Below are positions 35,214-47,548 of a DNA stretch of 64,000 bases, one piece after another. Location: assembly GCA_964507855.1 (NCBI GenBank), contig CAZDQS010000003.1:85988-149987 (forward strand), given 5' to 3'. Numbering within the stretch: the stretch's first letter is position 1; the number at the start of each line of letters is the position of its first letter. This DNA is from an uncultured Candidatus Saccharibacteria bacterium (GTDB taxonomy: Bacteria > Patescibacteriota > Saccharimonadia > Saccharimonadales > CAZDQS01). The notes beneath the pieces are model-generated. The model was not told where the DNA came from. It saw only the letters and a program-made list of their open reading frames with translations, and ran no database searches. The translations under genes and the position numbers were made by a program.

Positions 35214-35314
35214 ACTCCTTTTTACTGTTTACCCTAGCTTAGGGCTACCATCAGCAATTCGCAAGCACACACCTTGTGGATATCTATTACAAAAGCGGTA
35301 AAATACTACCAGAG

Positions 35315-38300
35315 ATGGGGAAGTTTGAAGAAGAGTACAAGCGGCTGAATGCCGCGCAAGCTGCGGCCGTTGATGCGATTGACGGGCCGGTGCTGGTCAT
35401 TGCCGGGCCAGGCACCGGCAAGACGCAGTTGCTCAGCATGCGCGTTGCCAATATCTTGCGCCGGACTGATGTTAACCCCGGCAATATCCTCTGCTTGACC
35501 TACACCGAATCCGGCCAGCAGGCTATGCGCCAGCGTTTGACACAGCTCCTCGGCAAGCCGGCAAAGAAGGTTGAGATCCATACCTTCCACGGCTTCGGCA
35601 ATTATATAATTGGCCGCTTCTCGGAACATTTTCCAGAGTTGGAAGGCTTCCGGCCGGCCGATGACCTCGCGCTCTATGAAACCATGCGTGATTGCCTTGA
35701 GCGGCTACCACGGAATAATCCACTTTCCAAAATGTCGTACGGTCAGTTCATCTACCAGGCCGATGCGTCAGCTCGTATCAGCCAGCTGAAACAAGCCGGT
35801 ATTTCGCCAGAGCAAGCCTGCGATCTGGCAGAACAGGACACCAAGTGGTGCGCTGAAGCCGGCGCAGTAATTACAAAAGCTTTTAGCACCATTGGGCGCC
35901 TGTCACCAAAATCCATCCCTTTGTTGCAACAGGAGCTTGCGTCGGTGCTGGACGGCACACATGAATCAAACGGCCTCGGCGACGCCTGCACGAGCGAACT
36001 TACTCAGGTGCTCGAAGAAGCCGCTGCCAGCAACAAGACCGCCCCGCTCAGCGCATTTAAGAAGCGCTGGTTTGTGAGCGAGGACGGCTCTCTTTACTTC
36101 CGTCCCAAGGACCAGCTCAAGAAGCTGTCCGCCCTGGTTGACCTGTACGCAATGTACGAGGCGGAAATGCAAAGCCGCAAGCTCTACGACTATGACGACA
36201 TGATCCTCTACGCGCTGCAGAAGCTGGAGTATGACAAAGAACTTCTAGCCGAGGTGCAAGAAACATTCCAGTACATTCTGGCGGATGAATACCAGGACAC
36301 CAACGCCGCGCAGGCTAAAATTATCACCCTCATTGCCAGCAATCCAGTGAACGAAAACCGCCCGAACGTCATGGTGGTGGGCGACGACGACCAGGCGATT
36401 TACGGCTTCCAGGGAGCGCTCGGCGACGTGCTGTTGCACTTCCGCGAAGCATGGCGGGATGTCACCACCATCACTCTCAAAGATAATTATCGCTCAACCC
36501 AGCCCATCCTCGACCTTGCCCGCCAGGCTATCCGGACAGGGCAGAAGCGCTTGGAGAATTATTACGAGGATATCGACAAAACGCTCACGGCCAATGCCAC
36601 GTACCGGCCCCAGCCGCCCGCCATGCACATCACCACCTCTCATGAAGCAGTGCTCGACCTAGCAGTCCATGCGGCAAAAAGCGCGGGCTCAGATCGACAG
36701 CTGGCGATAATAGCGCCGAAGCACAAATACTTAAAAGAGCTCGCTGACAGACTTGACGCCGCGCATGTTGATTATTTCTACGAAGGCCGCGAGGACCTCC
36801 TCAAAGACCCGGCACTCAATAACGTGCTGATGCTCGCCAGCTGTGCCCTAGCTGTGAAAGAACGTGAGTATGGGCTGACCAATTACATTTTGCCTGAACT
36901 GATTACAACAGGAGCGCTGGATATCACGCGGCCGCAGGCCTGGCGTATCGCCGTCCAAGCGCGCCAGCAATCAAAAAGCTGGTGGGAAGTACTTGCCAGC
37001 GACTCAATCGAGGGGTTGGAAAACGCCCGCACCAACATCCGGGCGCTTGCTGATTCGCTGGATGCGGCAGATGCCAAGGGCTCGCTTGCTTTTGTCGCGC
37101 GAACAAGAAACATCCATCGCCAGCGGCACATTCGCGCGCTTGTTGAACATGCAAAAAAATATTTGGGTCGAGACACGGTATCGCTCCATGAGCTGCTGAG
37201 GTACATAGAGCTGTGTAAACTGGCGGGCATTGCCTTAAGCGAAACGTTCGAGAAGGGAAATCGTGAAGCCAACATACTCCTCCTCAGCGCCCACAAGTCC
37301 AAAGGCCTGGAATTCGACCGAGTCCACGTGCTGCATGCCGATTATTACACCTGGTTTAAGGAACGTGGACGGATCAACACCATATCACTCCCGCCAGGAT
37401 GGCAGTATATCGAGCCTGAACGCCAGACCCTCGATGACAGGCTGCGGCTCCTGTACGTCGTCATGACCCGGGCCAAGCAGGAGCTGAGCCTTATCAAGAG
37501 CAATATCCGCACCGCACACACTGATAAACAAACCGATAACCTGCCCGGAACCGACGACATACAAACATTTGAACAAGCCGCACCGTCCGCTGATTCCATC
37601 CTCTCATCGCCGCAAGCGGAAGAGCAGTGGCAGAGCTGGTACTTGCCGACTGACAGCAAGGAGCAACAGCAGCTTCGGACAATCCTAGATCCCGTGTTAA
37701 GCCAGTACCGCCTCAGCGCCTCCCACCTGACCACATTCCTTGATATCGCGCATGGGGGCCCTTTACAGCTATTTGCGCACTCATTGCTCGGCATCCCAGC
37801 GCCCGCACACCCGGAAGCCTTGTTCGGCAACGGCGTCCATCAAACACTTCGGTTTTGCCAAGAGACGCTCAACGCGACCGGCAAGCTACCGGACAATGAG
37901 CAGCTAGCACACTACATTCGCACACACCTGCCGACAATGCGCGACGACCAGCGCAACGATGTCGTCTCGGCAGTACGGGAATTTATTGACCACACGGCAA
38001 TCTTAGAACGCGGCGGAGTCAGCGAATTCAGCTTCCAACCGCAAGATATCCAGATTGACGGCATCAGGATTACCGGCAACGTCGACCATTACATCGAGAA
38101 AGACGGTATTGTTCATATAACCGATTTTAAGACAGGGCGAGCTATAAACTCATGGCGCGTTACCGAAGATTACTACAAGCAAAAGCTGCACCGGTTCCGT
38201 TTGCAGCTTCTGTTTTATGACCTCCTGTTCCGCCTAAGCCCCATGTTTAACAATATTACCGGCACGAGCCTCAAGATAGCGTTCGTCGAACCCAGCCGGC

Positions 38301-38482
38301 GCGACGTGTACTGCGAGCTTCCCCTGGAGGCCGACGACCAATCACGCGAAGAGCTCACTAAGCTCATGGCTGCCGTCTGGAAACATATCATTACTTTGGA
38401 TTTTCCTGATACAAGCAGCTATGGCACGGACATGAACGGTCTCGCCGCCTTCCAGGACGACCTGCTGGCTGGATTGGTATAA
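35315..38482 (+). CDS. UvrD/PcrA-type SF1 helicase fused to C-terminal RecB-like PD-(D/E)xK nuclease
   Basis: ATG 35315 was chosen (the track starts at GTG 35276). 'LNAAQAAAVDAIDGPVLVIAGPGTGKT', 'ILADEYQDTN', 'VVGDDDQAIYGFQGA' and 'SAHKSKGLEFD' are present. The C-terminus has 'GNVDHYIEKDGIVHITDFKTG...YKQKLHRFRLQLLFY'. Confidence 0.85.
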   Translation: MGKFEEEYKRLNAAQAAAVDAIDGPVLVIAGPGTGKTQLLSMRVANILRRTDVNPGNILCLTYTESGQQAMRQRLTQLLGKPAKKVEIHTFHGFGNYIIGRFSEHFPELEGFRPADDLALYETMRDCLERLPRNNPLSKMSYGQFIYQADASARISQLKQAGISPEQACDLAEQDTKWCAEAGAVITKAFSTIGRLSPKSIPLLQQELASVLDGTHESNGLGDACTSELTQVLEEAAASNKTAPLSAFKKRWFVSEDGSLYFRPKDQLKKLSALVDLYAMYEAEMQSRKLYDYDDMILYALQKLEYDKELLAEVQETFQYILADEYQDTNAAQAKIITLIASNPVNENRPNVMVVGDDDQAIYGFQGALGDVLLHFREAWRDVTTITLKDNYRSTQPILDLARQAIRTGQKRLENYYEDIDKTLTANATYRPQPPAMHITTSHEAVLDLAVHAAKSAGSDRQLAIIAPKHKYLKELADRLDAAHVDYFYEGREDLLKDPALNNVLMLASCALAVKEREYGLTNYILPELITTGALDITRPQAWRIAVQARQQSKSWWEVLASDSIEGLENARTNIRALADSLDAADAKGSLAFVARTRNIHRQRHIRALVEHAKKYLGRDTVSLHELLRYIELCKLAGIALSETFEKGNREANILLLSAHKSKGLEFDRVHVLHADYYTWFKERGRINTISLPPGWQYIEPERQTLDDRLRLLYVVMTRAKQELSLIKSNIRTAHTDKQTDNLPGTDDIQTFEQAAPSADSILSSPQAEEQWQSWYLPTDSKEQQQLRTILDPVLSQYRLSASHLTTFLDIAHGGPLQLFAHSLLGIPAPAHPEALFGNGVHQTLRFCQETLNATGKLPDNEQLAHYIRTHLPTMRDDQRNDVVSAVREFIDHTAILERGGVSEFSFQPQDIQIDGIRITGNVDHYIEKDGIVHITDFKTGRAINSWRVTEDYYKQKLHRFRLQLLFYDLLFRLSPMFNNITGTSLKIAFVEPSRRDVYCELPLEADDQSREELTKLMAAVWKHIITLDFPDTSSYGTDMNGLAAFQDDLLAGLV

Positions 38483-39357: not shown

Positions 39358-39792
39358 CTACTTATACTGCGAACGGCGATGGCGGCGGAGACCAGCTACC
39401 TTGAGCCGGACAGCTTGGCGGTCGATAAGCGACTGTGCTTTCTCAAGCTCGATTTGATCTTTGGCTTCATTGCGCATTTTGCGGGCTAGTTCCAGAGCTT
39501 CTTGAATCTCTTGTTCATTCAACTCCTCGGGGTCATCAGCTTCATCAACCAACACGCGAACCGCGTTATCACGTACTTCGACAACGCCGCCGCTAATGGC
39601 ATAATGCTGCATCAAATCATCCGGCGTATTTTCCTGTGGGCGGATACTGACAACACCAGGAGCGGCGAGACTCACGAGCGGCATATGATGCCGGAACACC
39701 GCAATCTGCCCGTCGGGGGTGGGGAGCAGCACTTCATACACGTCCTGGCTGAACTTCGTCCCGGATAATGTTACGAGCTCGAATCTAATCAC
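39358..39792 (-). CDS. atpC: F1 ATP synthase subunit epsilon
   Basis: 144 aa with a GTG start and SD AGGAG. 'FELVTLSGTKFSQDVYEVLLPTPDGQIAVFRHHMPLVSLAAPGVVSI' is typical. Confidence 0.9.
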   Translation of the reverse strand: MIRFELVTLSGTKFSQDVYEVLLPTPDGQIAVFRHHMPLVSLAAPGVVSIRPQENTPDDLMQHYAISGGVVEVRDNAVRVLVDEADDPEELNEQEIQEALELARKMRNEAKDQIELEKAQSLIDRQAVRLKVAGLRRHRRSQYK

Positions 39793-40002
39793 TTTCTACT
39801 CCTGGCACACCCCAGACTATTTCTTCCGGAATAGGACGCACAATATCTGCAGCAGGCTCACAAGCGCCAACACAGGCAGAGCAGATTACCTGTCCCGCAG
39901 GACCTACCACTCTCCAGCATTTATCTGGACTCTGATTTATAGCCGCCTCTATGCCATCCACACTACTTTGAACTTTAATCTCGGGGGGATTACATCTCAC
40001 CA

Positions 40003-40003
<1 letters not shown>
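39785..40003 (-). CDS. 72-aa Cys-rich small ORF intercalated between atpD and atpC
   Basis: Its ATG shares 1 nt with the atpD stop (TAATG). SD AAGAGG lies in the atpD 3' end, and it overlaps the atpC start by 8 nt. It has 5 Cys including 'CSACVGAC' and belongs to no family I recognise. Confidence 0.45.
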
Positions 40004-41623
<1,620 letters not shown>

Positions 41624-46473: not shown

Positions 46474-47091
46474 TTAGAGGCCAAAAGCGCGCTTCAGACG
46501 GATCGGAATGGTCAGCTCTTCGGGCCCGGAGCAGGCGCTGGGATCAGACTTTTTATTGTACTCTTCCGCATCCTTAGGGATGGCGTCATAGCGCTCACCA
46601 AGCTCCGACTTAGATGAATCACCGTAGTCAATGAGCAGCATGTCGCCACTTTCGATCAAACGGTTAGCTACTGAGCCGATTTCGTTGCCATTCAATATAA
46701 ATGTCAGTTTACCGCCTTCGCCATCGACAAACACACCGTCATCCGTCTTGATGAGGTTGTTGCCAAGTGCGTAACTCAAGTTTGCAAAAAAGTGCCCCCA
46801 GGTCACCCCAGGTTCGTGCACATGAATCACATGGTTGACCATGTCATGCATATGCACGCGGGTCTTTGGGTCGCTGCCTTCGGCGCTACAACTCTGCACC
46901 TCTTCATAAAATGTCGGGTCATCGAACTCATCCCGCTCACCATTGATGTAGAGCGCAAAGTTTGCATGGTAGTGCACATCGTCACCGGACTGCGTCAGAA
47001 CATGCACACCAGCAAGCCACAACACACCACCAACAAAGCCCGCAAGGGCGGCTAATATAAGAGTTCTGGGAAGTTTCTTTACAATATCCAT
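46474..47091 (-). CDS. membrane-anchored His-rich protein, unknown function (conserved hypothetical type)
   Basis: 205 aa with an N-terminal TM. His clusters are 'VHYHANF', 'RVHMHDMVNHVIHVHEPG'. It has 2 Cys. Confidence 0.62.
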   Translation of the reverse strand: MDIVKKLPRTLILAALAGFVGGVLWLAGVHVLTQSGDDVHYHANFALYINGERDEFDDPTFYEEVQSCSAEGSDPKTRVHMHDMVNHVIHVHEPGVTWGHFFANLSYALGNNLIKTDDGVFVDGEGGKLTFILNGNEIGSVANRLIESGDMLLIDYGDSSKSELGERYDAIPKDAEEYNKKSDPSACSGPEELTIPIRLKRAFGL

Positions 47092-47123: not shown

Positions 47124-47309
47124 ATGATGACATTACTCGCCCATGCCGGGCACGACCACTCGGAACCAACCGCCACAACTAACAACCAGCTTCTTAGCTG
47201 GCCAGTGGCAGCAATATTGATGGCTGCCGTTGTTACTGCCGCGGTCGTCGCGACACTTGTGTATCTGAACCGCAAATCTGTACCAGCAGAGAAAGCCGAG
47301 AAGAAATGA
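47124..47309 (+). CDS. 61-aa membrane peptide with N-terminal His cluster (HAGHDH)
   Basis: It reads 'MMTLLAHAGHDHSEP' followed by a TM 'WPVAAILMAAVVTAAVVATLVYL'. It has an ATGA overlap with the following glutaredoxin gene, and TATAAT lies 6 nt before the ATG. Confidence 0.5.
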   Translation: MMTLLAHAGHDHSEPTATTNNQLLSWPVAAILMAAVVTAAVVATLVYLNRKSVPAEKAEKK

Positions 47310-47548
47310 TAGCAATCTACACAACCCCAACTTGTGGCTTTTGCCACATGGCAAAGCAATACTTCCAGAGCCTCGGTGTTGAGTATGAGGAACACGACCT
47401 CACACAAGACCACGAGGCCCAACAGTGGGTCTACGAAAAGACCGGCCAGCTCGCTGTACCAGTCATTGATATCGAGGGTGATGTTATTCTCGGTTTTGAC
47501 AAGCCTCGCATCGATACCGCACTGCGTGAAAACAAGCTCGTCTCTTAG
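47306..47548 (+). CDS. glutaredoxin-like protein (NrdH/YruB type)
   Basis: 80 aa with the active site 'TCGFCHMAK' and 'VPVIDIEGDVILGF'. Confidence 0.85.
   Translation: MIAIYTTPTCGFCHMAKQYFQSLGVEYEEHDLTQDHEAQQWVYEKTGQLAVPVIDIEGDVILGFDKPRIDTALRENKLVS

Follow-up and report, generated by a model that had tools for sequence, protein, structure and literature searches.

A conserved cysteine-rich small-protein gene between atpD and atpC in the ATP synthase operon of a Saccharibacteria bacterium

The stretch of DNA analysed (referred to as the window; 64,000 nt, with its own numbering) carries an ATP synthase operon on its minus strand, in the gene order atpB, atpE, atpF, atpH, atpA, atpG, atpD and atpC (Table 1). 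The spacer between atpD and atpC is filled end to end by an ORF of 72 codons with a Cys-rich, acidic predicted product, of which IPEEIVWGVPGVESD is a peptide; the sequence is exactly that quoted in the initial annotation. At its 5′ end the start codon shares one nt with the stop codon of atpD (TAATG), and a Shine-Dalgarno-like hexamer lies within the end of atpD. At its 3′ end the stop codon lies inside atpC, the overlap being 8 nt (GTGATTAG), and the Shine-Dalgarno sequence of atpC is embedded in the ORF. All of these details were found to be correct when the sequence was re-read, as were the five Cys and the arrangement C41-x2-C44-x3-C48 (CxxCxxxC) that had been reported. No promoter-like or terminator-like site was seen on the coding strand of the stretch from atpD through the 72-aa ORF to atpC. 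Overlapping stop and start codons are a recognised, well documented signature of termination-reinitiation coupling (PMC6728339), and their occurrence at both ends of the ORF would thus tie its synthesis to that of the beta and epsilon subunits. A second small ORF, of 82 codons, occupies the junction between atpG and atpD and is likewise overlapped at both ends.

Table 1. Positions of genes and sequence features at the atp locus of the window and at related loci.
Feature	Sequence	Position	Strand	Remarks
Glutaredoxin-family gene, 80 aa	Window	47306-47548	+	PF00462, E 3e-20; CGFC active site
205-aa ORF	Window	46474-47091	-	Directly 5′ of atpB
atpB	Window	46343-45384	-	
atpE	Window	45367-45158	-	
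atpF	Window	45005-44433	-	
atpH	Window	44433-44035	-	
atpA	Window	44038-42494	-	
atpG	Window	42490-41624	-	
82-aa ORF	Window	41627-41379	-	atpG-atpD junction; ATGA and TAATG overlaps
atpD	Window	41379-40003	-	F1 beta, 458 aa; Pfam ATP-synt_ab, E 5e-74
AAGAGG, Shine-Dalgarno-like	Window	40016-40011	-	Inside atpD end, 7 nt 5′ of the ATG of the 72-aa ORF
atpD stop TAA	Window	40005-40003	-	Part of TAATG
72-aa ORF	Window	40003..39785	-	Cys-rich, acidic; ORF call, stop included
72-aa ORF start ATG	Window	40003-40001	-	Part of TAATG
Cys cluster (CWRVV...ICSACVGAC)	Window	39919..39860	-	Residues 29-48; three-member alignment
C-terminal motif RPIPEEIVWGVP	Window	39838..39803	-	Residues 56-67; invariant among three members; codons differ synonymously between loci
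AGGAG, atpC Shine-Dalgarno	Window	39803-39799	-	Within 3′ end of the 72-aa ORF, 6 nt before GTG
atpC start GTG	Window	39792-39790	-	
72-aa ORF stop TAG	Window	39787-39785	-	Inside atpC
atpC	Window	39792-39358	-	F1 epsilon, 144 aa, GTG start; Pfam ATP-synt_DE_N, E 1e-17
Basic tail of epsilon	Window	39358-39400	-	
Antisense ORF, 105 aa	Window	39719-40036	+	Spans the 72-aa ORF
UvrD-helicase/PD-(D/E)XK nuclease gene	Window	35276-38482	+	AddB-like
UvrD-helicase/PD-(D/E)XK nuclease gene	L007	10020-12255	-	AddB-like
Antisense ORF, 242 aa	L006	1455-2183	-	Spans the small gene
Cys-free acidic ORF, 80-81 aa	L004	3763-4008		atpD-atpC slot; 8-nt atpC overlap
Cys-free acidic ORF, 80-81 aa	L005	3766-4008		atpD-atpC slot; 8-nt atpC overlap
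184-209-aa family	L004	1541-2095		atpG-atpD; absent from window
184-209-aa family	L005	1462-2022		atpG-atpD; absent from window
184-209-aa family	L007	3978-4607		atpG-atpD; absent from window
152-aa ORF	L007	2664-3122		atpA-atpG
Further unannotated atp-junction ORFs	L004	509-1544, 2092-2370		
Further unannotated atp-junction ORF	L005	2019-2363		

The surroundings of the operon show several other features. Subunit a, the atpB product, carries a C-terminal extension of about 55 residues (residues ~264-319) past the Pfam ATP-synt_A domain, with many His, Asp and Glu residues (AHAHEDHHDEHHERTDESE...) that may point to metal binding. The 205-aa ORF upstream of atpB occupies the usual place of atpI; its product has a hydrophobic segment at the N terminus and a stretch rich in His (HMHDMVNHVIHVHEPG), and no Pfam match was found for it. 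The glutaredoxin-family gene is located about 1 kb upstream of the operon on the opposite strand. A gene for an AddB-like UvrD-helicase/PD-(D/E)XK nuclease is present a few kb downstream of atpC in the window and in the related contig L007, and an aquaporin (MIP) gene comes after atpC in the window and in two related genomes (L004 and L005).

Relatives of the 72-aa product were sought by an exhaustive phmmer (HMMER) scan of 1.84 billion representative proteins. Besides the query, only two sequences were recovered, P0004 (83 aa, E 6e-9) and P0005 (84 aa, E 5e-5), with about 40-47% identity. P0004 is encoded on a contig labelled JX_forest (L006), and P0005 on JGI contigs (L007/L008), one of which is 102 kb long. 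Both genes occupy precisely the atpD-atpC junction, where they again start with a TAATG overlap and overlap atpC by 14 or 8 nt, and as position formed no part of the search criterion, it represents independent evidence. Word-index protein searches with the 72-aa ORF, or with a profile of the three members, brought back only the input or already known sequences; the family surfaced only through the exhaustive scan. A metagenome scan with the three-member profile found only the L007 contig again (as L009), and a scan of viral contigs with the same profile gave no match. Three Logan contigs (runs SRR7082976, SRR7082982 and SRR7082984) are 100% identical to the window at the DNA level, i.e., the same organism was assembled three more times, and they add no independent information.

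The three distinct members, of 72-84 aa, all come from environmental Saccharibacteria-like contigs and all map to the atpD-atpC slot, and are taken to form a very rare, unannotated family of predicted proteins. In the window, L006 and L007/L008 alike, the gene lies in this slot, starts with the TAATG overlap and runs at its 3′ end into the start of atpC, and the three products share an N-terminal CN, PxxCWR, Cx3/5C, RP[IL]PEEIxWGVP and five Cys in all. None of the members bears a name in any source, at least one of them being in NCBI, and the family had no match among Pfam, NCBIfam, PHROGs and PDB sequence profiles. The literature searched describes neither a gene between atpD and atpC nor ORFs of this kind in Saccharibacteria or Patescibacteria, and a literature search for the sample accessions returned nothing relevant.

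Cys residues are found at positions 4, 29, 41, 44 and 48 of the window's product and make up 6.9% of it, tenfold more than the 0.67% measured over 53 long ORFs of the window. The three-member alignment has 24 invariant columns, including four Cys and the 12-residue C-terminal motif, and these occur in the order Met1; Cys-Asn near the N terminus; P-x2-C-W-R; A-G; I; C-x-G-x-C; and D-x2-R-P-[IL]-P-E-E-I-x-W-G-V-P. Each member has exactly five Cys, four of them at invariant positions (C29, C44 and C48 among them), so the expectation that the Cys positions would be conserved in relatives holds for four of the five. In P0004 and P0005, which show CWRxC plus C-x3-C or C-x5-C, the fifth is the Cys that closes CWRxC; its stand-in in the window is C41, a window-specific residue three positions before the C-x3-C. 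The CxxCxxxC pattern to which attention had been drawn is present in the window, but it is not conserved, and only its C-x3/5-C part is kept in the relatives. It is not a canonical 4Fe-4S motif (CxxCxxCxxxCP), and no Fer4 Pfam match was obtained at E ≤ 1. A constant number of Cys with one shifted site would be easier to reconcile with a set of metal ligands than with disulfides in a fixed pattern, and the chances of metal binding by the conserved Cys appear evenly balanced. The net charge is about -5 in the window's product and -9 to -12 in its relatives. On inspection, a hydrophobic stretch of transmembrane length was absent from the 72-aa product. AlphaFold2 runs with the three-sequence alignment gave no confident fold (pLDDT 55.9 and 42.0), and the only element common to both low-confidence models is a beta-hairpin in which the CWRV strand pairs with a strand ending at the next Cys.

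A frame of 72 open codons that exactly fills a spacer would arise by chance with a probability of about (61/64)^72 = 0.03 (arithmetic), and the comparative data place the predicted gene far beyond chance. Nei-Gojobori values in the small ORF family are 0.70-0.75 for pS and 0.36-0.42 for pN, while pS is 0.66-0.92 in atpD and atpC between the same genomes, i.e., synonymous saturation. Because synonymous sites are saturated, dN/dS was dropped as a ratio and the contrast between pN and pS was used instead. At this divergence a spacer free of constraint would have lost its open frame and would no longer show 40-47% amino acid identity, which argues for a gene. Synonymous codon differences are seen at 16 of the 24 invariant columns (three of the other eight are Met or Trp), and the indels that separate family members are in-frame. 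The WGVP motif of L006 lies ~27 nt 5′ of the atpC start, apart from its Shine-Dalgarno sequence, and so is not a by-product of the ribosome-binding site of atpC. Conservation of the frame in relatives had been suggested as a check, and the two homologs, in the same slot and with pN below pS, provide it. The 72-codon frame is almost certainly a real protein-coding gene that is kept by selection, and the three members would constitute a new, very rare small-protein family that is real and conserved.

Codon usage of the 72-aa ORF is atypical, which counts against coding. Its codon log-likelihood of -0.09 per codon is lower than in any 72-codon segment read in frame from the genes of the window (mean 0.25, sd 0.11) and above 98.8% of the out-of-frame segments (-0.61 ± 0.31), and GC3 is 0.35 vs 0.57; part of this is due to the unusual amino acid composition. 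A structured RNA, raised at the outset as an alternative account of the spacer, is not indicated: no Rfam covariance model matched the spacer at E ≤ 1, and the predicted RNA folding is no better than that of shuffled sequences (MFE z-score +0.78). Antisense ORFs span the small gene in both the window and L006. The first codon positions of these frames fall on the third positions of the sense codons, which are the variable ones, and the antisense ORFs are therefore shadow ORFs that are not conserved as proteins.

The closest relatives of atpC in the genome collection, at 60-65% identity, are those of L004 and L005, two MAGs labelled uncultured Candidatus Saccharibacteria. In a neighbour-joining tree built from AtpD and AtpC in concatenation, the window clusters with these two, and 279 of 300 bootstraps separate this group from L006 and L007; midpoint rooting places L007 outermost. 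The atpD-atpC slot of both MAGs is occupied by a Cys-free acidic ORF, which is like the 72-aa ORF in its junction, its 8-nt overlap, its similar length and its net acidic charge. The two Cys-free ORFs are 59% identical, with pN 0.29 vs pS 0.79, indicating purifying selection, and a word-index search of a 5.8-billion-sequence database found no other relatives of them. Homology with the Cys-rich family is undetectable (BLASTP E 1.6, hhalign probability 0.1%, Smith-Waterman shuffle z ≤ 1.1), and the only look-alikes are the M-x-R-x-N-P start and the VES(P)D end. A tblastn match of the L005 ORF to the window was rejected as a chance match; it covers 23 aa inside atpC, in the frame of the 72-aa ORF past its stop, and runs through a stop codon (E 1.8e-4, the database searched being 400 nt), and nothing similar was found in the corresponding alternative atpC frames of L004 and L005. 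Under midpoint rooting, the Cys-rich family would be ancestral and would later have been replaced, or have diverged beyond recognition, in L004 and L005.

Some features of the slot are common to all five loci. The stop/start overlaps are kept at both ends, whichever protein family lies between them, the slot occupant 5′ of atpC is acidic, and the epsilon subunit ends in a basic tail (RRHRRSQYK, KRHRKSR, KRHRRKRS, KRRHRRQG and KRRGRR). Equivalents of the atpC Shine-Dalgarno sequence (GGAG/GAGGGAG) were identified in L007, L006 and L004.

Other atp junctions of the related loci also carry extra ORFs (Table 1). Members of the 184-209-aa family from different lineages are ~30% identical (E 1e-14 to 1e-17), and the family has no significant match to Pfam, NCBIfam or PHROGs. 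The atpG-atpD region of L004 contains about five ORFs over 2.3 kb, and a 114-aa ORF of L005 has a 62%-identical counterpart at 509-820 of L004. The 82-aa ORF of the window has no relative among the fetched loci; its best match, to a partial 92-aa ORF 5′ of atpD in L006, is weak (Smith-Waterman z 2.4), and its Pfam matches are all sub-threshold, the best being DUF6761 (E 0.016). An AAGGAG sequence in the region of this ORF precedes atpD. Two insertions in one atp operon are unusual for bacteria in general. The initial annotation had made the same point, and the second insertion is indeed present, but within this clade extra ORFs at atp junctions are the rule (L004, L005 and L007). Such ORFs, fast-evolving and with the predicted translational coupling, are a feature of the clade. 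Since unrelated ORFs occupy the same and other junctions, position by itself says little about a role in the ATP synthase.

The 72-codon frame is coding and conserved, its position is fixed, and its junctions have the architecture of coupled genes; the homologs, the selection on the frame and the junction overlaps uphold the original proposal of a genuine small-protein gene. The product is most likely a small protein, acidic and metal-binding, whose synthesis is translationally coupled to that of the F1 subunits. The gene would be transcribed within the atp operon, and stop/start coupling would lead from translation of atpD to the 72-aa ORF and on to atpC. The conserved Cys could then hold a metal ion, most simply as Zn(Cys)4, around a short beta-hairpin. 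The protein may serve as an accessory, non-core partner of F1 that either assists assembly or, as a regulator, acts on epsilon or beta, and docking might occur via the invariant C-terminal motif. More speculatively, the basic tail of epsilon could pair with an acidic partner. It is position that points to F1, and at present nothing beyond position links the product to ATP synthase function; such a function is regarded as possible, and rather less than an even chance. The complete proposal, i.e., a metal-binding mini-protein, coupled translation and an F1 accessory role, is offered tentatively, as falling just short of probable.

The main alternative is that the gene is real and unrelated to the ATP synthase, the atp junctions of this clade acting as permissive landing sites for small lineage-specific genes on a strong constitutive transcript, and the product working elsewhere. 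This would accommodate the unrelated Cys-free ORF in the same slot of L004 and L005, the 184-209-aa family and the 152-aa ORF at other junctions, the window's 82-aa ORF without a relative among the fetched loci, and the atypical GC3 of the 72-aa ORF. However, the Cys-rich family is confined to one slot in three lineages that have diverged to synonymous saturation, the L004/L005 replacement is alike in length, acidic charge and 8-nt overlap, suggesting that the slot selects a kind of protein, and the tight overlap of all junctions binds expression to the F1 subunits. A permissive landing site is thus considered somewhat unlikely.

A thiol or redox switch, of the kind that the initial annotation had considered conceivable, is improbable. 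In such a switch the Cys would be reversibly oxidised, or a redox-labile metal or Fe-S centre would be lost, altering binding to epsilon or beta and so tuning activity. The four invariant Cys, the five Cys of every member and the CxxC pair of the window would be in keeping with such a switch, the glutaredoxin-family gene upstream of the operon implies that thiol redox proteins exist in the organism, and a disulfide in the gamma subunit controls chloroplast F1 (PMC9317440). Yet CxxC is not conserved within the family, no match to redox or Fe-S families was found, and in L004 and L005, which cluster with the window, a Cys-free ORF fills the slot, so a thiol switch is no general requirement of these ATP synthases.

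If only the act of translation mattered, with the ORF as a spacer that sets the epsilon:beta ratio by termination-reinitiation, then the overlaps at both ends in all five loci, regardless of family, and the atpC Shine-Dalgarno sequence embedded in the 3′ end of the ORF would be readily understood, coupling by overlapping stop and start codons being documented (PMC6728339). This is very unlikely to be the full explanation, as purifying selection acts at the amino acid level along the whole ORF, including the invariant Cys and the 12-residue motif, and would not be expected if ribosome transit were all that counted; a coupling role and a role of the product can, moreover, coexist. That there is no gene, the long spacer being open by chance or encoding a structured RNA, might be read from codon usage weaker than in the neighbours, the return of the query alone by the word-index search and the antisense ORF across the region, but it is already contradicted by the comparative data (same-slot homologs, in-frame indels, synonymous-only changes at invariant residues, pN well below pS, no Rfam match, no excess folding energy and an antisense frame unconserved as protein) and is extremely unlikely.

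Few gene arrays of bacteria are as conserved as the ATP synthase operon, and Saccharibacteria are ultrasmall epibionts with minimal energy metabolism. The lineage-specific regulators zeta, IF1 and AtpTheta each revealed a new control of the enzyme. The Cys-rich protein of the beta-epsilon slot and the unrelated junction ORFs of the relatives provide a concrete candidate set of F1 accessory proteins; if the protein is unrelated to the enzyme, the locus would even so clearly illustrate small-gene turnover inside an otherwise rigid operon. A broader extension, regarded as unlikely, is that in this branch of environmental Saccharibacteria lineage-specific accessory proteins of F1 turn over rapidly at the atp junctions. 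The Cys-rich one of 72-84 aa would respond to metal or redox state and, as a partner of epsilon or beta, tune or assemble the enzyme, with an unrelated acidic protein as its functional replacement in the sister clade.

With four conserved Cys in fewer than 90 aa, the family resembles Cys4 zinc mini-domains (zinc ribbon, rubredoxin, small Tims), and the low-confidence models of the 72-aa family likewise put a beta-hairpin between Cys. Unlike zinc ribbons and rubredoxins, the family lacks paired CxxC knuckles; a single CxxC was found, in the window only, and neither Pfam, NCBIfam nor PDB profiles gave a match. P0004 is like the twin CX3C proteins, with CX3C...CX3C and the two motifs 10 residues apart; it is the only member with both motifs, P0005 having CX3C/CX5C and the window being without the first pair.

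AtpI (uncI), AtpZ and AtpQ/AtpR are small non-core ORFs of ATP synthase operons that are co-expressed with the subunits. They are membrane proteins whose genes lie 5′ of atpB or, in N-type operons, between atpC and atpB, whereas the 72-aa product is Cys-rich and acidic, has no hydrophobic segment and is encoded in the atpD-atpC slot. Assignment to these families found no support in Pfam or NCBIfam matches or in a stretch of transmembrane length.

Thiol or redox control of an F-type ATP synthase has a precedent in the disulfide of the chloroplast F1 gamma subunit (PMC9317440). The chloroplast switch is a Cys pair within gamma that is reduced by thioredoxin, whereas the Cys described here are on a separate small protein.

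To our knowledge, zeta, IF1 and AtpTheta are encoded outside the atp operon, and none has been described as Cys-rich. No sequence similarity between them and the 72-aa product was detected, and none of the three family members matched Pfam zeta/DUF1476 or IF1 at E ≤ 1. Zeta (Paracoccus and other alpha-proteobacteria), mitochondrial IF1 and cyanobacterial AtpTheta are small, soluble and lineage-restricted F1 binders that control ATP hydrolysis (PMC9317440, PMC10469736, bioRxiv 10.1101/2021.07.30.454416). They offer a plausible analogy for the 72-aa product, which by comparison with them might be a lineage-specific partner of F1.
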